From positions 2,080,001 through 2,144,000 of the forward strand of contig OY762721.1 of NCBI GenBank assembly GCA_963666345.1: a stretch of DNA of 64,000 nt, given 5' to 3'. The notes beneath the pieces were generated by a model. It searched no databases. It was not told where the DNA came from and saw only the letters and a list, made by a program, of their open reading frames with translations. The stretch comes from Desulfatiglandales bacterium. GTDB lineage: Bacteria; Desulfobacterota; DSM-4660; Desulfatiglandales; Desulfatiglandaceae. Shown piece by piece: positions 1-40,014 of the stretch; within the stretch, counting starts at the first letter, position 1, and each line of letters begins with the position of its first letter. Made by a program: the position numbers and the translations under genes.

Positions 1-979
1 AAACACGCCCAATATCGACCGCGCGGTTGTGAGCGTTCACTGCCACAACGATTTGGGGCTTGCCACGGCGAATACGCTGGCCGGGATAAGGGCTGGCGCC
101 AGGCAGGCGGAGGTCACCATAAACGGCATAGGGGAAAGGGCGGGAAACACCTCTCTTGAAGAGATCGTAATGGGCATCTATACGAGGAAGGATCACCTGG
201 GGCTTGCCACAGGCATAAACACGGACCAGATCTACCCGACAAGCAGGCTTGTGAGCATGGTAACCGGGATGGTCGTGCAGCCCAACAAGGCGATCGTGGG
301 CTCGAACGCCTTCGCCCATGAGGCGGGCATCCACCAGGACGGGGTCCTCAAAAACCGCATGACCTACGAAATCATGGAACCGAAAACGGTCGGGCTGTCA
401 AAGAACCTGCTCGTACTGGGAAAGCACTCAGGCAGGCACGCGTTCCGGGACAAGCTCAAGGCCCTAGGCTACGAGCTTCCCCCGGAGGAACTGAACCCGC
501 TCTTTGAAAAATTCAAGGAACTCGCGGACAAGAGAAAAGAGATACTCGATGAAGACATCGAGGTCCTTGTGGCCGAGGAGATACTCAGGGTTTCAGACAT
601 CTACAAGCTGGACTACCTCAACGTGGTAAGCGGAACAGTCGCCGTCCCCACGGCAACCGTAAAACTGAAGATCAAGGACAGGGTCGAGCAGAAGGCCGGC
701 TTCGGAGTCGGCCCGATTGATGCGGCCTTTAACACCATAGCAAAGATGGTCGGAACCAGGTCCAAGCTTGTCAGGTTCGCGGTCAACTCTATAAGCGGGG
801 GCATGGACGCGCAGGGGGAGGTAACGGTCAGGCTCAGGGAAAACGGGCTTGTGGCCCTTGGAAAAGGCGCTGATCCCGATATTATCACGGCCAGTGCCAA
901 GGCCTATATAAACGGTCTCAACCGGCTCGAACACATGAAGAAAAATCCTTCATTGTCACCTGAGGAAAGCACCCTCTGA
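1..979 (+). CDS. leuA: 2-isopropylmalate synthase (5'-truncated by window edge)
   Basis: [27 protein letters not shown] and LGKHSG motifs; C-terminal regulatory domain (GPIDA); precedes ilvBNC. Confidence 0.95.
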
Positions 980-9203: not shown

Positions 9204-9325
9204 TGCCCGGCTTCGCCTTCTGCTTATCCGGGCACGCTTTTTTCAGTTTTATACCCACTTTTCTTTATATCGAGCTTTGGCTTTTACTTTGGCCTGCCAG
9301 GCGGAGCCAGCAGGGCGAAGCGTGG
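9204..9325. repeat. Pair of inverted REP-like GCTTCGCC palindromic units
   Basis: GCTTCGCCTTCTGCT (about 9210) versus AGCAGGGCGAAGC (about 9309-9321), between the GIY-YIG remnant and the tmRNA 3' end. Confidence 0.55.
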
Positions 9326-9674
9326 TGGAGGCGGGGGGAGTCGAACCCCCGTCCGGAAACATTCCGCTTAGGCGTCTACATACATAGCCCGATGTTTTCG
9401 ATTCGCCCTTTGGTTAGCTATCAGGCAACGCTTCCAACAGGCTAACCTGCATAAGTTTTCGCATCACCGTACCGCAGGTATGTCGGATCTGCTAGCCCGC
9501 TAGTCGACGCCCTGTTCGGTCCCGCGAGCTTAGACCGACAGAACGCTAGCCTTATGCGGCTAGAGAGTACGCATAATCGTCTGCGTTTACTTTTGCCCAA
9601 CCGTTTTACGAGCAGCTGGAACCTCGGTATGCAACCTAAACTTCAACTATCCCCGTCGAAACCGGGTCGCCCCC
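9323..9674 (-). ncRNA. ssrA: tmRNA; tag reading frame ADDYAYSLAA* (9584-9552)
   Basis: 5' GGGGGCGAC...TTCGAC; 3' GGTTCGACTCCCCCCGCCTCCACCA; tag ending in LAA; adjacent to smpB. Confidence 0.97.
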
Positions 9675-26789: not shown

Positions 26790-29765
26790 TTAAAAAAGCT
26801 GTCTCCAGTAGAAGAGATTTACATCCGGCGCATCAGCCACATCCTCGGTAACGACACCCCCCTCGATTCCAAGATACATCTTGGGACCGCTTTCATGAAT
26901 GGCGATTACCGGCGCAGACGGTATGGCGGTACCTACCACCTTGCTCCTGTCAAGTTTTCCACGCTCGACTATCTCGCCTTCCGCATCGGTTTCCGTAACA
27001 TCGCTGTAATCCATAACAGCGCCGCCTGTCCTGTAATCAAGGGCGTAAAGTCTTGCAGTACCCCTTGTCTCGGCCACGGCGCAAGGGTCATCTTCCCCAC
27101 CCTCTTCCCCCGCTTCAGGAGTGTAGGTGGTCAGATATATGACTCCTGCAAAGGCGCGGGGCGAAGAGGTGATCTTTTCACCTAAATCTTCAAGCCTTAT
27201 GTACCATCCCTTTGCATCGGCCAGGGCCTCTGCGGTCTGTACCTTTTCATCCTCTGTCCCAAGCTGGATGAGATCGGCTGTTACATCCACGAGGTCGGAT
27301 TCATCAATGGTTGTAAAGCTGCCGATATCGTCCCAGCTGCTTTTTATCGCGTAAAGCCTGTTTACCACCCCGGTCTCGCCAGGATCAGCCCGATCACCGG
27401 TACCTAAAAAGATCATCTCTCCATAGGTTTCAGCAACCGCATCAGGGGCGTAAAAGATCTTTCTCTGAACCCCGTCCACGGCCGAGGCTGAAAAGAGTTT
27501 TCTTGCCACCCATGTTCCGTCACCATTGTCATCTTCAACCGCAAAGACATCACCCCCCATATCGCCCGCATACACGCGGTTTACATATCCGTTACCATTA
27601 CGGTCAAAACCTGAGACATCCACTATGCTGTTAGTCATCCCGCCAAAATTTGAGGCGTTTACATTAAGACTGCTTATGGCCCCGTCCGTAACCCTGACGG
27701 TAAAAATCGCCTTTCCGACTCCATCGGTTGCCGCTGGTGTTTCTGCATCCTGGTTGTTGTCATAACCTCCACCCAGGAGAAAGACCGTGTCGGAACCGGT
27801 CGCGGTCTTTATCCCGCATATCTCAGGCTTACACCAAGACTGACCCAGCTCGGCATCCCCTCCGCCCAGGGCGTTTGCGCCTATGGAATAGAGCCTTGAA
27901 GGTGATGTCGCGCTTGTTACGTCCAGGCCGTAGTAGCTGGTCCCGCCCCTTCTTTCCCCAAAAAAGAGGATCTTCTGGCTCGTCCCTGAATACAGGACAG
28001 GGGAGCCGTCCACAAAATAGTCGTGGTCGTCGTTTGAAAGAAGCTGGAGCCTTGGCATCTGGTCTTCAGGTATATATGCCCACAGCTCGCTTCCGTCGCT
28101 GTCGTCAAAACAGTGTAGCATTCCGTCGTTGCTTCCCACAAAGACCTTGGTATCCGTGGATGAATAATGAACCACGGCAGGCTCTGAATGGAGGATATCC
28201 CCGAAGATCCAGAACCTTGTCCCGCCGTGAATATCGCTAATTATGGTGTCACGCTGGCCGTCGGTTGATACATTAAGAACCCCCCTGGTAATAAGAGAGT
28301 TGCTCGATACAAAGGAATTATCCGAGTGGGTCAGAGCCGACTCGGTCCCCATGTATGCATAGATGTTCCTTGTGCTCTGATCAAGGAGCAGGTCTCCGAC
28401 ACCGCCTGCCGCCACATTGGGGCCGTCGGCGGAAACAGACCAGTAGGAGCGGGCATTGTCCTTTATTCGGCCGTCAGTCAGGGTGGCTGCCTGTCCGTCC
28501 TGATCTATTATGGCACCTGAAGCGTCAAGGCCGTATTTCTTTACATTTCCGAGCCACCTGCCGGAATTCTGAGGCTTGAAAAAGCCCAGGTAAAGCCTGT
28601 CTCCCGCGTAGGTCCTGTTCATTCGGCTTACAGGAACCACAGGGGCCACAAACACGGCGTTTTCCTCGCTTATATTTGCCATTATCTCTTCAAAGGCCTC
28701 TGAGAGGGCCGAATAATTGGTTGCAGTATAGTAAAGGCCTCCCCCGTTTGATGCGGTTTCTTCAAGCAGAGTCTGGTTTGTCTGAAATCCGATGGTGTAG
28801 GTAATGATGCTCTGTTTTTCAAAAGACGTGCCTGAGCCAAGGCTTGGATTGCAATCCCTTTCATACAGATACCTGGCCACATCGTCCAGGTAATCGGATC
28901 CGCTACTCCCGTAACTTCCCGGATCATTCCCGTCCCCGTCATAGTCGCCTATATTGTCTCCGTTTATATAGGTACCGGATGTGAGCCTCCAGTCTATATC
29001 CTGTGTGGGCTCCCCGTCGGTCATAAGTATTATGTAGTTTTTCTGGCACCGCTCCTCCATCGGGCTTGTGTAGTTGACCCCGCTGTTATACCAGCTGTCC
29101 ATGCCGGCAAAGTAGAGCCCCGCCTCTGCAAGGGTTTCTGCAAGGGGGGTCCAGTCGCTGGCGGGAAGTGCGGCCACACTGGTTAACAGGGTGGCCTTGC
29201 TGGTTCCGCATGGCTCAACAAGACGCCCGCCCTGGGTGCTATTGAACCTGAAAAGGCCGAAACGCACATTTTCCGTTTCATTAATGAGATCTGAGATGAC
29301 CTCTTTTGCCACATCTATCCTTGATCTGTAGGCACCTCCGCCTGAGGCCACGTAGTTCATGAAATTACCCACGCGCAATTGCTTATAAGTCCCGCCGCAT
29401 ATGCCGTGGTAAACCCCCCCGATGTAGCTGCGATTAAGTCTTTTGTAGCAGTATCCGTCCGTTAGCAGGGCATTCTTTACATCCTGGCAGTCGACATAAT
29501 CGATATGGCTGATATACTCGTACCATGAGTAATAATATCTCCTGTAGACCTTGTTGCTGTTGTATGGTCCGGAATAAGTGACTGCCGGATCATAAGGGTC
29601 GCCCGGGACATCCTGGGTAGCCATACTCCCGGAAGTATCAAAGATAATGAGTACATTGGGCTGAAGAGACACAGTCACGGTGCCGTATATCTCCGTGTCG
29701 TCACCCTGTGAGATTGCCGGAAAAAGCATAAGAAGCATCAGGCTCACTACTACGGCCCGTTTCAT
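26790..29765 (-). CDS. pilY1: PilY1/PilC type IV pilus tip adhesin (vWA + beta-propeller)
   Basis: MIDAS DTSGS, TPLAETL, LMTDGEP, GDILHSEP, SNDGMLH.F, GTGDR; RBS GGAGGA before the ATG at 29765. Confidence 0.92.
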   Translation of the reverse strand: MKRAVVVSLMLLMLFPAISQGDDTEIYGTVTVSLQPNVLIIFDTSGSMATQDVPGDPYDPAVTYSGPYNSNKVYRRYYYSWYEYISHIDYVDCQDVKNALLTDGYCYKRLNRSYIGGVYHGICGGTYKQLRVGNFMNYVASGGGAYRSRIDVAKEVISDLINETENVRFGLFRFNSTQGGRLVEPCGTSKATLLTSVAALPASDWTPLAETLAEAGLYFAGMDSWYNSGVNYTSPMEERCQKNYIILMTDGEPTQDIDWRLTSGTYINGDNIGDYDGDGNDPGSYGSSGSDYLDDVARYLYERDCNPSLGSGTSFEKQSIITYTIGFQTNQTLLEETASNGGGLYYTATNYSALSEAFEEIMANISEENAVFVAPVVPVSRMNRTYAGDRLYLGFFKPQNSGRWLGNVKKYGLDASGAIIDQDGQAATLTDGRIKDNARSYWSVSADGPNVAAGGVGDLLLDQSTRNIYAYMGTESALTHSDNSFVSSNSLITRGVLNVSTDGQRDTIISDIHGGTRFWIFGDILHSEPAVVHYSSTDTKVFVGSNDGMLHCFDDSDGSELWAYIPEDQMPRLQLLSNDDHDYFVDGSPVLYSGTSQKILFFGERRGGTSYYGLDVTSATSPSRLYSIGANALGGGDAELGQSWCKPEICGIKTATGSDTVFLLGGGYDNNQDAETPAATDGVGKAIFTVRVTDGAISSLNVNASNFGGMTNSIVDVSGFDRNGNGYVNRVYAGDMGGDVFAVEDDNGDGTWVARKLFSASAVDGVQRKIFYAPDAVAETYGEMIFLGTGDRADPGETGVVNRLYAIKSSWDDIGSFTTIDESDLVDVTADLIQLGTEDEKVQTAEALADAKGWYIRLEDLGEKITSSPRAFAGVIYLTTYTPEAGEEGGEDDPCAVAETRGTARLYALDYRTGGAVMDYSDVTETDAEGEIVERGKLDRSKVVGTAIPSAPVIAIHESGPKMYLGIEGGVVTEDVADAPDVNLFYWRQLF

Positions 29766-29806
29766 GGCTGTTCCTCCTGATGATTTAAAATTGTTCAACT
29801 ACCAAC

Positions 29807-30328
29807 CTATGGTTTGTTAAATGCCTTCCAAACACCTGCCTGGATTCGGGTATTGCCCGCCTGAGATACGGTTGTAATACCGTAGCGGCGAACCTCGAAA
29901 TATTTCATGCTGTATCCCGACCCGGCGGGAGGGGGCATAATATGCTCACCAACCGGCACGTCGTTCGCGTTTCCGCTCAACCCCGTCACATCCGTGCCGC
30001 TTGCCTCTATGCAGCGAACCTCGGCGGTTGCGTCATCCGTCCCGTCAGAGTCATAGTCAACATTTCCCGTATAGGCGGCCACGGTTTCGTCCGCGGTCAG
30101 AAACCCTATGGTCAGCCATGTGGCTGAGGACTCAACCGTATCAAGGAGGGCCGCCTCGACCGTGTAAAAATCATTTACGATCTGCCTTTCATTCGCGGAT
30201 ACACGAATCTCCGTATCAGAGGTCCTGGTGGCCGCAATCCCGATTATGGTAATCATGACAAGAATCAGTATCGCGGCCGCAAGCACAAACCCCTCTTCGT
30301 TTTGAACCACCCTTTTCAGAACTCCCAT
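29807..30328 (-). CDS. pilX: PilX-like minor pilin
   Basis: EG|FVLAAAILIL prepilin-like leader lacking Glu5; gene order. Confidence 0.8.
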   Translation of the reverse strand: MGVLKRVVQNEEGFVLAAAILILVMITIIGIAATRTSDTEIRVSANERQIVNDFYTVEAALLDTVESSATWLTIGFLTADETVAAYTGNVDYDSDGTDDATAEVRCIEASGTDVTGLSGNANDVPVGEHIMPPPAGSGYSMKYFEVRRYGITTVSQAGNTRIQAGVWKAFNKP

Positions 30329-30345
30329 AGGTTTCCCCCTTGAGC

Positions 30346-30984
30346 CTAAAGGCTCAGATTCCTGCAGATCACCCTGGTATTAAGGGTCCTTGTAAAATTT
30401 TTGCCGTGCCCGTCAACCCCCTGGCATGTCATTGAAATGGCAACGGCCCTTACATCTTCAAGATCGGAGGCGGAAACCGGTACCGTAAGGTTGTTCCCAT
30501 CCTTATCAAGATAGCTGAAGGCAAGAGCGCTTACGTTCGTTATGACGGTCTGGGTGCTCTCGCTTCCCGTCCCCTCGTAAAGACACTGCTCGAGCCTCCT
30601 GTTTCCCGCATCATATTCATAGGTTATCCTTTCACTGTCCGATTCCTCTATTGTCCCGTCCAGATCCATATCCGCTGTAAAGCGTATCTTTGCGGAGGTG
30701 GCCTCCTTTATGCCGGCACCATGGCCGTCCACGGAATCATTTGCAGGTCCTATCGGATCAAGGCCTGCCATTCTCATGTTCCTTACCATGAATGCGAGCC
30801 CCAGTCTGACCCCCTGCTGGGCCTCCGCAACGCTGTCCTGAGTATGATACGATCTGTTTGAAGAGATAAAGATCCCGTAAATAGCTCCCAGTACCACGCC
30901 TACTACGGCCATTGCGACAAGAAGCTCGACAAGCGTAAAACCTTTCCGGTCAAATGGGTGTGAAAGGCGTGATTTGCGTGACAT
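30346..30984 (-). CDS. pilW: PilW-like minor pilin
   Basis: KG|FTLVELLVAM; RMAG motif. Confidence 0.82.
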   Translation of the reverse strand: MSRKSRLSHPFDRKGFTLVELLVAMAVVGVVLGAIYGIFISSNRSYHTQDSVAEAQQGVRLGLAFMVRNMRMAGLDPIGPANDSVDGHGAGIKEATSAKIRFTADMDLDGTIEESDSERITYEYDAGNRRLEQCLYEGTGSESTQTVITNVSALAFSYLDKDGNNLTVPVSASDLEDVRAVAISMTCQGVDGHGKNFTRTLNTRVICRNLSL

Positions 30985-31424
30985 CAGTTTCCCCCTCCCC
31001 GGGTAATGGTATCTATGACCACCCGCCTGTTATAACCGGCCTCACTCCAGGCTACGGTTACCGTTATTAGACGTGAAAAACCGGAGTGGTTCGCGACAAC
31101 CCAGGTACGGTTGAACGCTCCGCCCCCTGCGCCTGTCTCATCTACCGGGTTATTGGGGTCGCTGTAATTTCCCGGGGTAAGGGCCGCGGAGCTAAGGCCT
31201 GAATTCTTGAGGGTCTCAATCTGGGCCTCAGCAAGAAAAGTGGCGGCGGTCAGACGATTTCCGGATCGATTTCCACCGATGGCGCTCAGCTGCATCGTGG
31301 CGACAGCCAGAAGACCTATGGCGAAGATGGAAATGGCAATCAGGACCTCCAGAAGGGTGAAGCCATTTTGACCGGATATGAGTTTTTTTGGCATGCTTGG
31401 ATTCTCCATCGACTCTTGGATCAA
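30984..31424 (-). CDS. pilV: PilV-like minor pilin (start uncertain)
   Basis: NG|FTLLEVLIAISIFAIGLLA; C-terminal VTVAW. Confidence 0.85.
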   Translation of the reverse strand: MIQESMENPSMPKKLISGQNGFTLLEVLIAISIFAIGLLAVATMQLSAIGGNRSGNRLTAATFLAEAQIETLKNSGLSSAALTPGNYSDPNNPVDETGAGGGAFNRTWVVANHSGFSRLITVTVAWSEAGYNRRVVIDTITRGGGN

Positions 31425-31954
31425 TCAACATCGGTCCATGAGCCGCCGTTTGAACTTTCCTGTATCCGTACGTGACCCACCAGAGAGAGGCTGATTCCCC
31501 TGTAGTTGTTCTTGGTGTTCTTCATATATATGTGGCCGCCCAGTCCGTTAGGCAGCCCTCGTCCGTCAAAGCGGCACCTGGGAACCCCACCTGAAAAACC
31601 TGCATCATACATGTTTACCCCTTCAGGCATCTGCACACTCCTTATGAGTTGCTCGGTTCCGTCCTGAACCCAGTTATCGGCAGTCCCGCCTCCGCTCCCG
31701 TTATCAACGAACATGGAATATCTGTTGCCCCCGGTATTGCAGACAAACGCGACACTGGTGTTTTCACGGATCGCCCTCAGCTTGGCAAGCTCCATATCGG
31801 ATTTTATATCACGAACAGCAGCCTTAAGACGCATGTCGGGAACCATGCGCGAATAGGTGGGGATTCCTACCGCCATAAGCAGGGAAATGATTGCCAACAC
31901 CACTATAAGCTCAAAAATCGTGAAGCCTGACCGCCCTGTCTCAACAACTCCCAT
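31421..31954 (-). CDS. fimT: FimT/FimU (GspH-like) minor pilin
   Basis: SG|FTIFELIVVL; AKLRAI; FDGRG. Confidence 0.82.
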   Translation of the reverse strand: MGVVETGRSGFTIFELIVVLAIISLLMAVGIPTYSRMVPDMRLKAAVRDIKSDMELAKLRAIRENTSVAFVCNTGGNRYSMFVDNGSGGGTADNWVQDGTEQLIRSVQMPEGVNMYDAGFSGGVPRCRFDGRGLPNGLGGHIYMKNTKNNYRGISLSLVGHVRIQESSNGGSWTDVD

Positions 31955-32245: not shown

Positions 32246-33649
32246 ATGGATAAAAACATGAAAATAGGCAAGGGGCAGACAGTAGAACTCGAGATAGAAG
32301 CATTGGCCTTCGGAGGCGAGGGGATCGCACGAATAGACCGGTTTGTCGTATTTGTAAAAGGCGCCGTTCCGGGAGACATCGTCAGGGCAACCATTTTCAA
32401 GAAAAGAAAGGCCTATGCCCAAGCCAGGATGGAAGAAATCATCTCCCCTTCAAGTGACAGGACAGAACCGCCCTGCCCGTACAGCGGCTACTGCGGAGGC
32501 TGCCAGCTTCAGCATGTCAAATATGACAGGCAACTTTTCTATAAAAGGAATCATGTCATAGAGGCATTTTCACATATCGCGGACATAAAGGACGTACTGG
32601 TGAGGGAAGCAATGCCCTCCCAGCTCAAGATGGGATACAGAAACAAGATGGAATTTTCTTTTTCAGACAGGAGATGGTTCCTTCCCGGCGAGATGCACCG
32701 GAAGGTGAACTCAGAGCCGTTCGCACTCGGTCTCCATGTGCCTGGAACATTTAACAAGGTTATTGACATTGATGCCTGTCTGCTCCAACAGGAAACGGGA
32801 AACAGAATTCTCAGGAAGGTCAAGGAATACGCTAAAGAATCAGCAGAAGCGGCCTACGGCATAAAAAGCCATCAGGGGTTCTGGCGCTTCCTTATGATAC
32901 GCAGCTCCAGGGCATTTGATGAATGGATGATAAATCTGGTTACATCCGAAGAAAAAACATCCCTTTTGATGCCGCTGGCGGAATCACTGATAGATTCCGA
33001 ACCCGACATCAAGACGGTTGTAAACAACATAACAAATAAAAAGGCCTCCGTTGCCGTTGGCGAAAGAGAGGTTGCGCTGTTTGGAAACGGGTATATAGAA
33101 GATATGATCGGAGCGCGTACCTTTCAGGTATCTGCGAATTCTTTTTTTCAGACAAATCCTCTTTCCGCTTGCCGGTTGTATGAAAAGGTAGTTGAGTTCG
33201 CAGCCCCTAAAGGTAATGAAAAGGTCCTAGACCTTTACAGCGGCACAGGCACCATTCCTATCTTCCTTTCCGACAGGGTCTCCTCTGTTACCGGAATCGA
33301 GATCAGTGAAAGCGCGGTGATGGATGCAAGAAAAAACTGCGTTCACAACGGGATAGACAACTGCAATTTTATCTGCGGAGACATAAGGAAGGTGCTTTCG
33401 GAATTGAAGGTTCCTCCTGACGTCATGGTCATAGACCCCCCCAGGGCAGGTATGCATAAAGACGTGCTCGGCAAAGTCATCGAAATGGCGCCTGAAAGGA
33501 TAGTCTACGTATCCTGCAATCCGGCCACCATGGCAAGAGACATATCCAGCATGATTTTCAGATATAAAGTTGAGGAAATACAGCCGGTGGACATGTTTCC
33601 GCACACATACCACATCGAGTCAGTGGCAAGACTTTCAATCCGCAGATAA
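32246..33649 (+). CDS. rlmD: 23S rRNA (uracil-5)-methyltransferase RlmD/RumA
   Basis: TRAM domain, CPYSGYCGGC FeS motif, FFQTN, DPPRAG, YVSCNP, DMFPHT.H.E. Confidence 0.95.
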   Translation: MDKNMKIGKGQTVELEIEALAFGGEGIARIDRFVVFVKGAVPGDIVRATIFKKRKAYAQARMEEIISPSSDRTEPPCPYSGYCGGCQLQHVKYDRQLFYKRNHVIEAFSHIADIKDVLVREAMPSQLKMGYRNKMEFSFSDRRWFLPGEMHRKVNSEPFALGLHVPGTFNKVIDIDACLLQQETGNRILRKVKEYAKESAEAAYGIKSHQGFWRFLMIRSSRAFDEWMINLVTSEEKTSLLMPLAESLIDSEPDIKTVVNNITNKKASVAVGEREVALFGNGYIEDMIGARTFQVSANSFFQTNPLSACRLYEKVVEFAAPKGNEKVLDLYSGTGTIPIFLSDRVSSVTGIEISESAVMDARKNCVHNGIDNCNFICGDIRKVLSELKVPPDVMVIDPPRAGMHKDVLGKVIEMAPERIVYVSCNPATMARDISSMIFRYKVEEIQPVDMFPHTYHIESVARLSIRR

Positions 33650-33665: not shown

Positions 33666-33693
33666 TTGACAAAATCGATGCAAAGGATATACT
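33666..33693 (+). promoter_or_regulatory. Sigma-70 promoter upstream of the rpsU leader
   Basis: TTGACA-16 nt-TATACT. Confidence 0.7.
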
Positions 33694-33773
33694 TCCTTGT
33701 CTATTATTAGACCTCGGGAGAGAGAAATCGTTCTTCCTAAGGATTTCGGTTTTCGGCAAAGGGGGTGATCATA

Positions 33774-33887
33774 TTGTTCAGATTACATATGAAAAGATTC
33801 AGCGCTCAAGGACCGCTCAGGGTCTTGACGCAGTACCGCCCCATAGCCGTTGAGAGCCCCCGGTCCTTCTTTGGGAAGACGAGATAA
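33774..33887 (+). CDS. Putative 37-aa leader peptide MFRLHMKRFSAQGPLRVLTQYRPIAVESPRSFFGKTR (not in ORF track)
   Basis: Extended SD AAGGGGGTGATC just before a TTG; in-frame ATG at 33789; stop at 33885-33887. Confidence 0.45.
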   Translation: MFRLHMKRFSAQGPLRVLTQYRPIAVESPRSFFGKTR

Positions 33888-33962
33888 GGAAACAATATGC
33901 CCGATTTGAGCTAAAAAGACATGGCATACTGAACAGGCCACGGCCTGATTTTGAAGGAACGG

Positions 33963-33999
33963 AAGGCATCTCAAAAGCTGTTTTTGAGGTGCTTTTTTT
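33963..33999 (+). terminator. Intrinsic terminator-like hairpin 27 nt upstream of the rpsU start
   Basis: AAGGCATCTCAAAA-loop-TTTTGAGGTGCTT followed by a T run. Confidence 0.75.
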
Positions 34000-34026
34000 A
34001 ATTTTAGGAACGAGGTAAAAAAAAAC

Positions 34027-34212
34027 ATGAAAGTAATTGTTCGTGACAATCAGATTGAAAAGGCCATAAAAGACCTTAAGAGAAAGCTTACCAAAGAAGG
34101 TTTTTTTTCGGAAATAAAGGAAAGACGCTTTTATGACAAACCGAGCGTAGCAAAGAAGAAAAAGCAGGCAAAAGCGGCAAAAAGGCGAAGAAAAAGGATG
34201 AGAAGGTTCTAA
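34027..34212 (+). CDS. rpsU: 30S ribosomal protein bS21
   Basis: VIVRDNQIEKA...KRK...EG...E...RRFYDKPS. Confidence 0.96.
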   Translation: MKVIVRDNQIEKAIKDLKRKLTKEGFFSEIKERRFYDKPSVAKKKKQAKAAKRRRKRMRRF

Positions 34213-34250
34213 GGCCTTTCCTCTTATATTAGCCCCTCCCACTAACCTCA

Positions 34251-34448: not shown

Positions 34449-35195
34449 ATGAGGCCGGTTACGATGAAAAATTCAAAAAATGCCTCTTTTGAATCTCTTA
34501 AGGAGGAATGGAGAGACTTCTTTTCCAAATATCTTCCCTCTTGGCTCGACATTGACCGATTGGCAGGAATATTTAAGGGAGGAGCCTTTTTCCTTGTTGG
34601 TTTGATCGGAGCACTGATAATCGGATGGTTTGTTTTCCCAATAGCACTATACTCCGAGCAGGAACAGCCGATGAATTTCAATCACGCCGTACATCTGGAC
34701 CCTGAGAAGGTGGATGGGATTGTCGGTGATTCAAAGGAAGACAAATGCCTCTTCTGTCACAGCTTCAGGGAAGACGGTTCATTTTCAGGTATTCCCAGGC
34801 TTGAAGACTGTATGATGTGCCACGATGACCCGGAATATCCATATGGACAATCAAAGGAAGAAAAGGCCTTTCTGGCAAATTTTGTTGCCGAGGAAAAGGA
34901 GATCCCATGGCTCTCTTATTACCGGCAACCTGACTGCGTCTATTTTTCTCACATTGCGCATGTAAAAATGGGTAAGCTGGAATGCCTGACCTGCCACGGT
35001 GACCACGGAACCCGGCAGAGGCTTCCCATGTATAAAGCCAACCGCCTGACAGGATACAGCATGAATATCTGGGGAAAACGCATCTCCGGTATGAAAGAAA
35101 ATACCTGGGATCGCATGAAGATGGATGACTGCGCCGAATGTCATACCCGGATGGGGCATGAAGAAAACAATGCCTGTTTTGTCTGCCACAAATAA
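34449..35195 (+). CDS. qrcA: Menaquinone reductase multiheme cytochrome c subunit (5 CxxCH motifs)
   Basis: N-terminal TM helix; CLFCH, CMMCH, CLTCH, CAECH, CFVCH; QPDCVYFSHIAH. Confidence 0.9.
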   Translation: MRPVTMKNSKNASFESLKEEWRDFFSKYLPSWLDIDRLAGIFKGGAFFLVGLIGALIIGWFVFPIALYSEQEQPMNFNHAVHLDPEKVDGIVGDSKEDKCLFCHSFREDGSFSGIPRLEDCMMCHDDPEYPYGQSKEEKAFLANFVAEEKEIPWLSYYRQPDCVYFSHIAHVKMGKLECLTCHGDHGTRQRLPMYKANRLTGYSMNIWGKRISGMKENTWDRMKMDDCAECHTRMGHEENNACFVCHK

Positions 35196-35206
35196 GGGGA
35201 ACAACG

Positions 35207-37594
35207 ATGAAAATAGATAGAAGAAACTTCATTCAACTTATGGTGGGAGGTGTGGCAGGGCTTCACCTAACGCCTCTTCCCTGGAAACTGACCGACGACA
35301 TCGCTATCTGGACCCAGAACTGGCCATGGGTCCCTGTTCCTCACGCTGGAAGGTTCAATCACGCCAAAACGATCTGCAATCTCTGCCCTGGAGGCTGTGG
35401 AATTGAAGTCAGAAAGGTTGATTCCCGCGCGGTAAAGATAGAAGGTCGTACTGACTTTCCCGTTAATCCGGGTGGCCTGTGCCCTGTTGGCATGGGCGGA
35501 CTTCAGCTTCTGTACAACGAAAGTATAAGATTTCCCCATCCGATGAAGAGAGTGGGACCAAGAGGAGCGGGTAAATTTCAGAATATCACATGGGACGAGG
35601 CGCTTCAGACCCTTGCAGGGCATATGGCTCAACTGAGAAGTGAGGGCGGGGCCGAAAGGCTTGCTGCTGTCGACGGAAATCCTCGGCACTCGACCATGGC
35701 CCTTATGGTGGCTCGCCTGTTAGAGGCCCTTGGCAGCCCCAATTACCTTAGGATTCCTACCTCGGAAGATACCAACCGGATTGCCGCCCATCTGATGATG
35801 GGAAGCGATTGGCCCGTATCATATGATCTTGAAAACTCCGACTTTGTTCTCAGCTTCGGATGTGGCCTCCTTGAGGGTTGGGGAGCACCCGGAAGGGTCC
35901 TCAATGCCTGGGGCATCTGGAGATCTCAATCAAACAACAATGCAAAAATAGTCCAGATCGAATCAAGGGCATCCAACACGGCATCAAAGGCGGACCGCTG
36001 GATAGCTCCCATACCAGGCACGGAAACGGCTCTTGCGCTCGGCATGGCACATGTAATCGTCAAGGAAGGACTTTACAGCAGAAAATTCGTGGATGACATG
36101 TCAACCGGGTTTTATGACTCATCTGGCAAGGGATTCAAGGAACTGGTTCTTTCGGAATACTCCCCCGCAAGGGTAAGCGACATAACAGGCTTAAATGCCA
36201 AGGAAATAACCGGGCTAGCCAGATCATTTGCAGGGGCAAAGGCCCCGGTGGCCCTGTGTGGAAAGGGAAAGGGCGCCCTTTCAGGAGATGTCTACGAATA
36301 CATGGCGATACTGGCCCTTAACGCACTGGTGGGAAATATCAACAAGCCTGGAGGGGTTATCGTAAATAATCCTCTGCCTCTTTCCCCGCTGCCCCCGGTA
36401 ACAAAGGATGACACCGCTCTTAACGGGTTAAAGAACAAGAGGCTTGACAGGGCGGGAACAAAGGAAAATCCCTTTACACCCAGTCTGATAAACAACCTGG
36501 CGGAGGCTGTTTTAGGCAGCAAAAATTCACCGGTTGACACCTTGCTGGTTTTTTCCGCAAATCCCGGCTACACCCTTCCTGATGGAGGCGCATTTAAAAA
36601 GGCATTGGAAAAGATCCCCTATATAGTGAGCTTTTCCCCTTACAGGGACGAAACATCTTCAATGGCGGATCTCATACTTCCTGATCATACGTATCTTGAA
36701 AAAAGAGACGATTTCATCTGGCAATCGGCACTCCAGTATCCGATGTACGCCATTTCTTCCCCGGCTGTCAAACCGGTCTATGACACCAGAAATACGGGAG
36801 ACGTAATAATAGAGCTGGCAAGGCTCATCGGTGGCACGGTTGCCGACTCCTTTGACTGGAAACAATACGAAGAGGTACTCGCATATCGGGCCAAGGGGCT
36901 TGCCGATAAAGGCGGGCGGGTAAGTTACAAGGACTCTGATCCTGCCTGGAACTGGCAAAAGACCGGTTCAGGCTCACCTTTTAAATCTTTTGAAGCTATG
37001 TGGAAAAAGGCAAAAGAGTCCGGGTTCTGGTTTAAGCCCCTTGGAGACGAAATTACGAAAGGCAGGCCGGTTTTCAAGACTCCTTCATCAAAATTCGAAT
37101 TCTTAAGCTCCAGACTTGCAAAACAACTTGATCAAAGAAAAAGGGGTGCCGCTCTTCCCCATTATGAAGAGGCACTGCCGGGAAAAAAGGGCGAGGAATA
37201 CCCGTTGAGATTACTCCCCTACGAGATGCTGAACCTGGCAAGCGGCTGGATCGTAACCCCGCCCTTCCTTACCAAGACATTACTTGATACCCAGCTTAAA
37301 AAAGACGAATCCTTTGTCGAGATTAACCCTGAGACGGCCGCCAGGTTCAAGCTGAGACAGGATGACAGGGCCAAGCTCACCACCCCTGCCGGAAAGGCCG
37401 TAGTCAGGGTCAACCTTTTCGAAGGGGCCATGCCGGGCGTTGTTTACATGCCCCTAGGAATGGGTCACAGCGCCTATGACGAATTCATGAAAAATAAAGG
37501 GGTCAATGCAAACGAACTGATAGCCCCCGGCAAGGACCCCGTAAGCGGTTATCCGGTCTGGTGGAACACACCTGTAAAAATAAAAAAGGCTTAG
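35207..37594 (+). CDS. qrcB: Menaquinone reductase molybdopterin-oxidoreductase-like subunit
   Basis: Tat motif DRRNF; TPLPWKL.DD.AIWTQNW; DMSO-reductase-family fold motifs. Confidence 0.9.
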   Translation: MKIDRRNFIQLMVGGVAGLHLTPLPWKLTDDIAIWTQNWPWVPVPHAGRFNHAKTICNLCPGGCGIEVRKVDSRAVKIEGRTDFPVNPGGLCPVGMGGLQLLYNESIRFPHPMKRVGPRGAGKFQNITWDEALQTLAGHMAQLRSEGGAERLAAVDGNPRHSTMALMVARLLEALGSPNYLRIPTSEDTNRIAAHLMMGSDWPVSYDLENSDFVLSFGCGLLEGWGAPGRVLNAWGIWRSQSNNNAKIVQIESRASNTASKADRWIAPIPGTETALALGMAHVIVKEGLYSRKFVDDMSTGFYDSSGKGFKELVLSEYSPARVSDITGLNAKEITGLARSFAGAKAPVALCGKGKGALSGDVYEYMAILALNALVGNINKPGGVIVNNPLPLSPLPPVTKDDTALNGLKNKRLDRAGTKENPFTPSLINNLAEAVLGSKNSPVDTLLVFSANPGYTLPDGGAFKKALEKIPYIVSFSPYRDETSSMADLILPDHTYLEKRDDFIWQSALQYPMYAISSPAVKPVYDTRNTGDVIIELARLIGGTVADSFDWKQYEEVLAYRAKGLADKGGRVSYKDSDPAWNWQKTGSGSPFKSFEAMWKKAKESGFWFKPLGDEITKGRPVFKTPSSKFEFLSSRLAKQLDQRKRGAALPHYEEALPGKKGEEYPLRLLPYEMLNLASGWIVTPPFLTKTLLDTQLKKDESFVEINPETAARFKLRQDDRAKLTTPAGKAVVRVNLFEGAMPGVVYMPLGMGHSAYDEFMKNKGVNANELIAPGKDPVSGYPVWWNTPVKIKKA

Positions 37595-37608
37595 ACACGA
37601 GGTAGATC

Positions 37609-38397
37609 ATGAAAGAAAAACCTGGCCACGACAACAGCTACGGCATGGTTATTGACTTGGATAAATGCACCGGCTGTGGAACATGCATGGTTGCCTGTGC
37701 GGCTGAAAACAATCTTTCCGTAAGGCCTGATGAATCGGACAAGCAGCGCAGCATTACCTGGATGCGTCTTTATAAGATCACCAATGGTAAAAAATTCCCG
37801 GATACCGAGGTCTGCTATTTCCCAAGACCCTGCATGCAGTGCTCTCACCACACGCCCTGTGTCAGTGTATGCCCGGCCACAGCCACAAAAATCGACTATC
37901 ACACAGGTATTGTAAGCCAGATATATACACGTTGCATAGGGTGCAGATACTGCATTGCGGCCTGCCCTTATCATGCCAGGACCTTTAACTGGTGGGACGG
38001 CTATTTTCCAAAGGAAAAGGGTATGGACAGATATCTCTCGCCCGAGGTGTCGCCCAGGATGAGAGGAGTGGTGGAAAAATGCACATTCTGTCATCACCGT
38101 CTGATGAGGGCACATAACAAGGCCTATTCGCAAGGGCGCAGAGAACTGAGAGAAGATGAATATATCACGGCCTGCGCCGAGGCATGTCCGGTCCAGGCAA
38201 TAACGTTCGGAGATCTTGATAACCCTGAGCACAAGGTGTCCAAATTGAGCAAAAGCCCCAGGGCCTTCAGATTGCTTGAAAGGCTTGGAACCGAACCAAA
38301 GGTATATTACCTCTCCTCAAAGGACTGGGTAAGAAAGATGGGTGACAATTACCTGCCGGGAGAATACAAACCCATACATCATGTAAAGGCGGGCTAG
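37609..38397 (+). CDS. qrcC: Menaquinone reductase iron-sulfur subunit
   Basis: DLDKCTGCGTC, CMQC...PCVSVCP, CIGCRYCIAACPY, EKCTFC. Confidence 0.92.
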   Translation: MKEKPGHDNSYGMVIDLDKCTGCGTCMVACAAENNLSVRPDESDKQRSITWMRLYKITNGKKFPDTEVCYFPRPCMQCSHHTPCVSVCPATATKIDYHTGIVSQIYTRCIGCRYCIAACPYHARTFNWWDGYFPKEKGMDRYLSPEVSPRMRGVVEKCTFCHHRLMRAHNKAYSQGRRELREDEYITACAEACPVQAITFGDLDNPEHKVSKLSKSPRAFRLLERLGTEPKVYYLSSKDWVRKMGDNYLPGEYKPIHHVKAG

Positions 38398-38431
38398 ATA
38401 TGGACAGGATCATTCAGGAGGGAAAAAGATA

Positions 38432-39670
38432 ATGGACTCGGCACTGTTTCCTGAAAAGGTTAAAAGATGTTCACCAAAGGTGTTTCTCATATGGACCCTG
38501 CCATGGCTCGCGCTCCTTGCATGGGGAGGCATATCTGCTGCGCTTTGTCTCTTAAAGGGCCTCAACCAGACCAACATGAGCGACTATTTTGCGTTCGCCC
38601 TCTGGATAGTCTTTGACCTGGCGATTATTGCACTGGGTGCAGGGGCCTTCTTCACAGGATTTCTCACCTACATAATCGGTAAAAAGGAATTGAAAGACAT
38701 AATCAACGCTGCCGTAATTATCGGTTTTATCTGCTATTCCGGCGCAGTGGCCATGCTCGGTATTGATATAGGCCAGCCGATTCGAGGGTGGTTCATCTTC
38801 TGGCATGTCAATGTCCACTCAATGCTTGCCGAGGTGTCATTTTGTATCACATGCTACCTGGCGGTTCTGGCCATAGAATACATCCCTCTGATCCTTGAAA
38901 ACAGGCAGATAAGCAGGGTGAAAGGACTCAGGCTCGCAGGTCACAACCTGCACGGTATAATGGCCGTGTTTGCCGGAACAGGAACCTTTCTCTCGTTTTT
39001 TCACCAAGGCTCCCTCGGTGGTCTCTACGGCGTAATGTACGCAAGACCCTTTGCCTTCAGGGAAGGATTTTATGTCTGGCCCTGGACCTTTTTCCTGTTT
39101 ATCCTCTCCGCAATAGCTGCCGGCCCATGCTTTACCATACTCTGCACCAAGCTTGCCCAGAAGATTACCAAGAAAAAACTGGTGCCTGAAAAGGCCTTTC
39201 AAACCCTTGCAAAGATTTCAGGCTGGCTGCTCGGTCTTTACATGGTTCTCAAGATCGCCGATAACCTCGGCTGGATGTACGGGGTTGTTCCGAAAGCGGG
39301 ACTCACCTTCATGGATTTCTACAAACAAGGGCCTTACGGAGTATGGCTCATAGTCTTTGAAATAATCATATGCGGCATCGTTCCCGCCGTCATCCTGCTC
39401 ACGCCTAAGGCCAGGAAACAGGAAGGATGGCTTATAAGCGCCTGCCTGTTAAACTGCGCAGGCATTGTCCTGAACCGTTTTGTCTTTACCATAGTCACCC
39501 TGGCTGTCCCGGTAATGCCCTTTGATAAATTTTTCAGTTACCTGCCTACCTGGCAGGAATGGGGCATTTCCCTCGCAGTCATAGGATACGGTTTTCTGCT
39601 TTTTTCACTTTCATACAGATATTTGCCCGTATTCCCTAAGGAAACGGAGTTGAATTCGGCTGGCGAATAG
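38432..39670 (+). CDS. qrcD: Menaquinone reductase NrfD/PsrC-family membrane subunit
   Basis: Multiple TM helices; DIGQPIR, FHQGSLGG; operon order. Confidence 0.9.
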   Translation: MDSALFPEKVKRCSPKVFLIWTLPWLALLAWGGISAALCLLKGLNQTNMSDYFAFALWIVFDLAIIALGAGAFFTGFLTYIIGKKELKDIINAAVIIGFICYSGAVAMLGIDIGQPIRGWFIFWHVNVHSMLAEVSFCITCYLAVLAIEYIPLILENRQISRVKGLRLAGHNLHGIMAVFAGTGTFLSFFHQGSLGGLYGVMYARPFAFREGFYVWPWTFFLFILSAIAAGPCFTILCTKLAQKITKKKLVPEKAFQTLAKISGWLLGLYMVLKIADNLGWMYGVVPKAGLTFMDFYKQGPYGVWLIVFEIIICGIVPAVILLTPKARKQEGWLISACLLNCAGIVLNRFVFTIVTLAVPVMPFDKFFSYLPTWQEWGISLAVIGYGFLLFSLSYRYLPVFPKETELNSAGE

Positions 39671-39852: not shown

Positions 39853-40014
39853 ATGTTCCCCTTTATTTTTGAATGGCAATGGCAGGCAGACCATTATATA
39901 TTTCTTGGTCTTCTATATCTGGCTCTGATCATCATAGGAGGCGGGATAACGTTTGTGGGAATCAAAACCGTGCTCCAGATCATGGGTTTCATGAGAGAAA
40001 GGCATTTTCATTAA
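39853..40014 (+). CDS. 53-aa single-TM protein after qrcD: MFPFIFEWQWQADHYIFLGLLYLALIIIGGGITFVGIKTVLQIMGFMRERHFH (not in ORF track)
   Basis: SD AAGGAG upstream; hydrophobic helix; same strand as qrc. Confidence 0.8.
   Translation: MFPFIFEWQWQADHYIFLGLLYLALIIIGGGITFVGIKTVLQIMGFMRERHFH

Follow-up and report, generated by a model that had tools for sequence, protein, structure and literature searches.

The single bS21 gene (rpsU) of a Desulfatiglandales bacterium lies within the window analysed here, a stretch of 64,000 nucleotides (GenBank assembly GCA_963666345.1, contig OY762721.1, positions 2,080,001 to 2,144,000 of the forward strand). Between rpsU and its upstream neighbour, presumably an RlmD-like gene, is a leader carrying an extended Shine-Dalgarno (SD) sequence, two short open reading frames and a set of alternative pairing strands, with the following features in window coordinates:

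32246..33649 (+), TRAM-domain RNA (uracil-5)-methyltransferase gene, the upstream neighbour, from ORF and domain search (context only)
33666..33693 (+), sigma70-type promoter, TTGACA-16-TATACT, with 11 of 12 consensus bases
33758..33770 (+), SD1, an extended SD, 12–13 bp with the 16S tail (12 counted from 33759, 13 from 33758), one of them G-U; core in 116/118 class loci
33774..33887 (+), uORF1, TTG start, 37 codons, TAA stop at 33885-33887; a putative translated track across the antiterminator, its peptide not conserved
33837..33842 (+), anti-SD1 C-run, which in the predicted fold closes a hairpin (P1) over SD1 and the start codon
33850..33869 (+), D, the 5' strand of the antiterminator, within uORF1 (covariation, folding and alignment)
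33885..33914 (+), SD2 (33885-33890, overlapping the uORF1 stop) and the mini-ORF uORF2 (ATG at 33897, 5 codons)
33953..33974 (+), G, the switching strand, whose partner is D or the terminator 3' arm (folding and covariation)
33961..33999 (+), intrinsic terminator with U-tract, 17 pairs at 33961-33997; motif in 91/116 class leaders
34012..34016 (+), modest SD of rpsU itself, GAGGT, about -7.3 kcal/mol
34027..34212 (+), rpsU, ribosomal protein bS21, 61 aa, single copy and the only bS21 gene of this genome

The original prediction, drawn from this stretch alone, had proposed a bS21-sensing attenuator built from a promoter, a 12-nt near-perfect complement of the 16S 3' tail, a TTG-started uORF and a strong terminator. 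The promoter is present with 11 of its 12 consensus bases, the complement pairs with this genome's own 16S 3' region through one G-U pair, and the U-tract of the 17-pair terminator ends at 33999, 27 nt before rpsU. The 37-codon uORF is also in place, but it had been described as missing from the ORF listing, which in fact gives it from a GTG at 33765, a codon inside SD1. The element is bigger than the one first described, as it also includes an antiterminator strand within uORF1, an anti-SD C-run and a second mini-ORF. We infer that transcription starts near 33699-33700. Among assembled RNA contigs from four RNA runs of one study, a 506-nt contig of a near strain in X1 covers 33734-34236, across the terminator, and a contig in X2 begins at 33733; such contigs may derive from DNA and show no transcript ends, and are not counted as evidence. 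The whole leader folds better than its shuffles (z -3.79), while the uORF region alone does not (z -0.60). In Rfam, the leader had no match at the gathering score, and up to an E-value of 10 there were only three chance matches, none of them in the uORF.

Features in a single window are weak evidence, as promoters occur at chance number and SD sites are repeated, so the case for a beyond-chance arrangement comes from the relatives. For example, the promoter is the best of four matches in 3 kb, where shuffles give 4.1, and the count alone is thus at chance level. Similarly, AAGGGGGTGA occurs 18 times in this genome, so such an SD is not unique, and SD1 ranks about 31st of the 120 genome sites at or below -19 kcal/mol. 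A reading of SD1 as the strongest SD in the genome (0/4105 ORFs as strong) was dropped because around 30 sites are equally strong, some of them at real starts. Related rpsU loci, with duplicates removed, comprised 122 from the class, 118 of which had at least 250 nt upstream; the named relatives are mostly MAGs of the Desulfatiglandales, Desulfatiglandaceae or 'Desulfobacteraceae' and are not independent samples, which holds for all class counts given here. A search of up to 900 nt placed the SD1 core, GG[GA]GGTG, upstream of rpsU, and not at the rpsU start, in 116 of these 118 loci (the exceptions being L109 and L135), against a background of 243/4105 ORFs (5.9%) of this genome (window -450..-25) and 7/90 phylum rpsU loci (about -450 to -25/-30); the two background windows cover less sequence than the 900 nt used for the class. 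Across the class, loci selected on this motif had a median upstream SD1 of -19.5 kcal/mol. The terminator motif was present in 91 of the 116 leaders carrying SD1 and absent in 25, so the conservation of both SD and terminator, on which the original prediction was staked, was largely borne out. A similar promoter precedes SD1 in 75/86 relatives, and a promoter at or below the terminator was predicted in only 3/86, which makes a separate rpsU promoter below the hairpin unlikely, as had been proposed from the shortness of the gap. The C-terminal motif of the methyltransferase lies no more than 500 nt upstream of SD1 in 76/106 class loci.

The conserved part of uORF1 is its position and frame rather than its product. 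A start codon lies at an offset of 12-16 from the SD core in 85/91 leaders, 50 of them at exactly 14 (the 85 being ATG 36, TTG 32, ATA 10, GTG 3, CTG 2, ACG 1 and ATT 1), and 72-94 nt (mode 85) separate the start from D. When D was positioned from the alignment, which retained 80/91 leaders and lost the 11 in which the anchor or terminator could not be called, the frame stays open across D in 67/70 leaders versus 4 and 9 in the shifted frames; the corresponding figures are 45/47 versus 3 and 5 among leaders below 70% identity, and 72/76 versus 7 and 10 when D was placed by the first motif search. A stop triplet occurs at D-5 in 39/70 leaders, and the frame that would read the stop in D is used in 1/70. 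The peptides share 18% identity among relatives and their substitutions are spread across codon positions (57/76/74; 31 synonymous versus 82 non-synonymous in 16 independent close pairs), compared with 11/5/176 and 175 versus 7 in the rpsU control. No sensor amino-acid run or enriched residue was found in 45 uORF1 peptides, whose substitution pattern is neutral, and the peptide had no Pfam match. An open frame across D combined with a neutral peptide implies that translation matters and not its product, and uORF1 thus appears to be kept for the act of being translated. The conservation anticipated for the uORF therefore holds for SD spacing, start codon and open frame, and fails for the peptide, which drifts neutrally. 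In most leaders, uORF1 stops 22-87 nt past D; in L003 and L009 it starts with CTG and stops before D (after 3 and 23 codons), with D, the uORF-side SD and the terminator intact. A second SD and mini-ORF follow D, with an ATG at D+36..41 in 38/75 leaders, and 37 of these 38 mini-ORFs stop within 6 codons versus 189/412 (46%) at other positions.

D complements the 5' arm of the terminator together with the bases before it, collectively G. In 56 leaders with a mean identity of 35%, cognate D:G pairing outside the terminator stem averaged -10.0 kcal/mol versus -7.0 kcal/mol for non-cognate pairing (0/5000 permutations), while a neighbouring control window gave a null result (1597/5000). Of the D:G alignment cells, 76% were paired versus 42-51% when the strands were slid, and 49 cells had two-sided changes versus 25.8 in shuffles, though the number of D:G pairs with a two-sided change was not above shuffles (159/500). 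Terminator cells were 95% paired, with invariant terminator-proximal bases. The C-run before D is able to close over SD1 in 60/75 leaders, compared with 7-16/75 in three control windows, and the folds predict a paired SD1 in 54-55 of 56 leaders. Covariation links the start region to a partner 45-72 nt downstream (0/5000); between SD1 and the anti-SD C-run itself it is weak (178/5000), the single compensatory case being L013 and the single counter-case L065. Identity in the stretch from SD1 to D is about 35%, and no motif is conserved there. A hairpin between D and SD2 was rejected, showing no covariation (4539/5000), and a start codon located on D in L136, L138 and L141 was not counted as support, as D there folds on itself and pairs weakly with G.

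When leaders were folded up to the terminator loop, G was held by D in 41/56 with no ribosome and in 40/56 with the start site masked; with D masked, which removes D:G by construction, the terminator formed in 53/56. In full-length equilibrium folds without a ribosome the terminator formed in 44/56 leaders, and it formed in 41 with the start site masked. As the terminator already wins in most full-length folds, read-through has to be kinetic. A covariance model built from the D-to-terminator part of the leaders matched 71/121 class genomes, many of them in its training set, and its best match lay directly upstream of rpsU in 70 of these 71, the last being split by a contig end. The model gave one significant match in this genome and, among 136 phylum genomes outside the class, two weak matches (E 5e-4 and 9e-4), neither of them on a contig with a listed rpsU match. 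Matches varied by leader family, being most frequent in f1 (49/55), followed by f6 (17/40), f4 (3/5) and f5 (1/1), with none in f3 (0/17) or f2 (0/2). These comparisons argue that the leader is a real, class-wide and undescribed cis-regulatory element. No description of such an rpsU leader was found in the literature on bS21 autoregulation, rpsU leaders and ribosomal-protein attenuators (main texts, mostly of open-access papers); rpsU is not mentioned in the main text of PMC2965389, and the accessible part of PMC9976891 names Desulfobacterota only for bS21 paralogs. The original statement that no such leader was recognised for Desulfobacterota thus agrees with Rfam and the accessible literature.

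Two families depart from the layout in the window. In family f3, 32-76 nt separate a long SD from an SD-poor rpsU start, often with a hairpin of varying arms in between; most of these leaders lack a start codon behind the SD, and the terminator is missing (leaders of this type are L024, L025, L029, L031, L036, L038, L041, L043, L075, L077, L080, L082, L088, L097, L101, L102, L105 and L115). These leaders might exert the same control at the level of translation; that their long SD serves as a decoy or standby site is a guess. Upstream-RBS occlusion in Sinorhizobium meliloti, as presented in the accessible text of PMC13285730, may describe this variant, unlike the leader in the window, which is predicted to act over 270 nt through a terminator. 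In family f4 (L050, L133 and L134), two long SDs occur in tandem about 50 nt apart, the second within a long, near-perfect antiterminator helix.

The location of the strong SD also differs between the class and the rest of the phylum. The rpsU start itself has an SD at or below -12 kcal/mol in 69/90 phylum loci (median -13.1) versus 15/122 class loci (median -7.3), a contrast that is inflated because phylum starts were re-picked for the best SD and class starts were not. Several loci outside the class carry the same long SD and a TTG directly on rpsU, while all 122 class rpsU genes start with ATG. This suggests that the strong start signal has been displaced from rpsU onto the uORF in this class. 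In a quick bS21 tree with many open forks, the class forms one group, with the sister lineage and the order of events not fixed.

Comparison shows an ordered set of segments, namely SD1 with the start codon (1), the C-run (2), D (3), G (4) and the terminator 3' arm (5), with pairings 1:2, 3:4 and 4:5. The leader thereby combines a uORF of predicted translation, located between promoter and gene, with a terminator and an antiterminator that are mutually exclusive, the antiterminator overlapping uORF1, and it is very probably a real translation-coupled attenuator. Judging from the folds, without a ribosome 1:2 would close the start site and 3:4 would form, and RNA polymerase would read into rpsU; if a ribosome reaches SD1 ahead of 1:2 closure and goes on to translate into D, 3:4 would be blocked and 4:5 would terminate transcription. 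Established knowledge of bS21 and the SD:anti-SD helix suggests that bS21-replete subunits would win this loading race and repress rpsU. Subunits lacking bS21 may load too late, leaving D free and rpsU on, or they may bind the long SD and linger at a weak start codon (TTG, ATA, CTG, GTG) with the same result, and these two versions are judged about equally probable. Re-initiation at uORF2 would park a ribosome in the D:G loop beside D and may keep D blocked, which fits the second SD of f4 lying within the D strand.

Sensing of bS21 is plausible given the gene controlled, the shift of the strong SD to the uORF and the lack of an amino-acid sensor, and on balance we favour bS21 status as the main physiological signal. 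According to the accessible text of PMC10983998 and PMC10931766, bS21 stabilises the SD:anti-SD duplex in E. coli, while in F. johnsoniae it is described (PMC9976891 and PMC13000457, in part) as hiding the anti-SD and clashing with a 13-bp helix, with bS21 loss stabilising 30S complexes on rpsU. SD 4-mers in this genome peak at 17% at -11, compared with a background of about 1.2% (1701 ORFs); such wide use of SDs makes E. coli-type behaviour of bS21 the likelier. The bS21 of this genome gave a weak match (E 2.5e-4) to chain z of PDB 7jil, which we take to be the F. johnsoniae ribosome, ending at query residue 52 with the C-terminus outside the alignment. Taken as a whole, an initiation-set, ribosome-dependent attenuator giving negative feedback on bS21 is the best explanation and has a slightly better than even chance of being right. 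Several points count against it. Once it has finished uORF1, 22-87 nt past D in most leaders, a ribosome has cleared D, and loss of bS21 could make no difference at so strong an SD. If the own-start SD of other phylum members works as in Flavobacterium, only the version in which subunits bind and linger gives negative feedback. The exceptions also count against it, namely the 25/116 leaders without a terminator motif, family f3 with its general lack of a start codon, L003 and L009 with their early stops, and L109 and L135 without SD1.

The proposed attenuator resembles several known systems in part. In trp- and his-type leader-peptide attenuators, the position of the ribosome on the uORF decides between terminator and antiterminator, and the ilvBNC and trpL papers reportedly describe transcription attenuators of this kind. 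The leader studied here shares a uORF that overlaps the antiterminator, and ribosome position would likewise select the structure, but neither a regulatory codon run nor a stalling or conserved peptide was found, the conserved inputs being instead the SD, a weak start codon and an anti-SD timer; in addition, untranslated trp leaders terminate, whereas an untranslated leader here is predicted to be read through. The uORF attenuator of B. subtilis vmlR is said to sense ribosome-targeting antibiotics, and has in common with the present leader that normal uORF translation would lead to termination and impaired ribosomes to read-through of a ribosome-related gene; here, however, a core ribosomal protein is under control, and conservation falls on an SD helix, not on a drug-stalling peptide. 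Autoregulation of rpsU through a strong SD in Flavobacteria, which the original prediction had cited, agrees with the accessible text of PMC9976891 and PMC13000457. In Flavobacterium johnsoniae and other Bacteroidota, the likeness consists of a very long SD:anti-SD helix (12-13 bp, with G-U) in the rpsU mRNA that is a likely sensor of ribosome composition (PMC9976891, PMC13000457 and PMC13000453, in part). As far as these sources go, the Bacteroidota SD serves the rpsU start itself in a genome otherwise without SDs, where bS21 conceals the anti-SD and ribosome loading turns rpsU ON at the level of translation. In this SD-using genome, by contrast, the long SD serves a uORF 270 nt upstream, the SD on the rpsU start is -7.3 rather than about -13 kcal/mol or stronger, and the predicted output is termination, with productive loading meaning OFF. 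The attenuator reading of the original prediction is strengthened by the conserved SD, start, frame and terminator and by the covarying antiterminator, while its Flavobacterium analogy does not carry over directly to this leader. In Francisella tularensis, the 5' leader of rpsU2 lets bS21 reduce the level of its own mRNA, as is proposed here; the accessible text of PMC13374519 mentions no uORF and states that the responsible elements are unidentified.

Alternative explanations accept the same architecture to differing degrees. The attenuator might respond to initiation capacity at large or to stress on translation (free active 30S subunits, IF3 level, cold, antibiotics or growth rate) and not to bS21 specifically, given that folding predicts read-through after any failure to translate onto D and that stalled ribosomes are reportedly sensed by uORF attenuators such as that of vmlR. 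IF3 is sensed at the AUU start codon of infC, which the non-canonical uORF1 starts (ATA 10, CTG 2, ATT 1 and ACG 1 of 91) recall. Such a general sensor is nevertheless a minority prospect, since across the class genomes and this genome the model matches only rpsU leaders, and what stands out as conserved is the long SD, contacted by bS21 and found on the rpsU start itself elsewhere in the phylum. Alternatively, the sequence ahead of rpsU might be an independent gene for a small protein or a small RNA, ended by its own terminator, with rpsU expressed from another promoter or through constant leak. All parts of such a complete unit are indeed present, from promoter and strong SD to ORF and terminator, yet the peptide is neutral and without a Pfam match, the RNA has no Rfam match, D:G covariation extends outside the terminator, a downstream promoter is predicted in only 3/86 relatives and the element is always in cis to rpsU in the class genomes matched by the covariance model, making this reading very improbable.

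The wiring could instead be reversed, with translation of uORF1 or re-initiation at uORF2 promoting antitermination, such that the long SD would, as in Flavobacterium, be loaded more readily by ribosomes lacking bS21, which would switch rpsU directly on. This would suit the window itself, where a full-length fold with a ribosome parked on SD1 is predicted to favour the antiterminator (G:D 0.67, terminator 0.04), and would suit a uORF1 stop past D and a uORF2 within the D:G loop. The effect is not general, however, as start-site masking changes little across the 56 leaders (terminator in 41 versus 44); nor was a conserved anti-antiterminator found, the D:SD2 hairpin lacking covariation, and loading at the second SD of f4, inside the D strand, would break the antiterminator. 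We consider this reversal improbable, and give equally little credence to a classical r-protein leader in which free bS21 or another protein binds the RNA, for example at the SD:anti-SD-like helix of SD1 and the C-run, and shifts the balance between terminator and antiterminator with the uORF secondary. Predicted pairing of SD1 in nearly all leaders and the invariant terminator-proximal bases speak for such a leader, and bS21 represses rpsU2 via the leader in Francisella (PMC13374519, accessible text); on the other side, a start codon at fixed spacing followed by an open frame would be left unexplained, the SD1-to-D region lacks any conserved motif, and the same text reports no described bS21-binding motif.

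In its fullest form, the favoured account is of an attenuator that reads ribosome composition, in which a long-SD signal was moved to a decoy uORF and terminator, ribosomes containing bS21 would shut down their own bS21 gene by winning the loading race, and sister families rewired the displaced SD otherwise; we would put this account at even chances. In the literature compared, as far as its accessible text extends, a worked-out mechanism of bS21 autoregulation exists only for Bacteroidota, whose ribosomes hide the anti-SD. If true, the account would extend bS21 autoregulation to an SD-using bacterium with polarity opposite to that of Flavobacterium, and would represent an attenuator sensing one missing ribosomal protein at initiation, adding initiation speed to sensors based on codons, drugs or a protein-binding site. 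One signal would also have been rewired into at least three architectures within a single class. The leader offers a compact and portable reporter, with a binary read-out (terminate or read through), for whether bS21-lacking ribosomes act differently on long SDs in SD-using bacteria.

Some other readings of the region were rejected. It can be drawn as a rod resembling 6S RNA, but it had no Rfam match, the segment is not unusually stable and relatives keep a different layout; this genome, which is 96.7% complete, gave no match to the 6S RNA family RF00013. A genome repeat family was dismissed because self-BLAST and motif matches fell in unrelated coding DNA, and a small-protein or type I toxin gene because the uORF1 peptide is neutral, not hydrophobic and without a Pfam match.

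Beyond the class, the 90 phylum loci (L162-L251) combine a very strong own-start SD in 69 cases with frequent TTG or GTG starts in an SD-using phylum, and long SDs may serve bS21 feedback in more than the Bacteroidota. At L208, L214, L219 and L221, the upstream gene ends in an SD-like tract 120-160 nt ahead of rpsU, and a hairpin with a U-tract lies between that tract and rpsU, perhaps an independent attenuator in another lineage. The bS21 genes at L222 and L237 have weak SDs of their own and lie directly behind what by eye appears to be an RRM RNA-binding protein gene. Elsewhere in the window, multiheme cytochrome, molybdopterin-family, 4Fe-4S and NrfD genes at 34449-39670 (+), which we take to be QrcABCD-like, are followed at 39853-40014 (+) by a hydrophobic ORF of 53 aa without a Pfam match. 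A five-gene cluster at 26790-31954 (-) is pilin- and adhesin-like by eye from its translations, presumably encoding type IV pilus minor pilins and a PilY1-like adhesin, and a tmRNA was identified by Rfam match at 9323-9674 (-).
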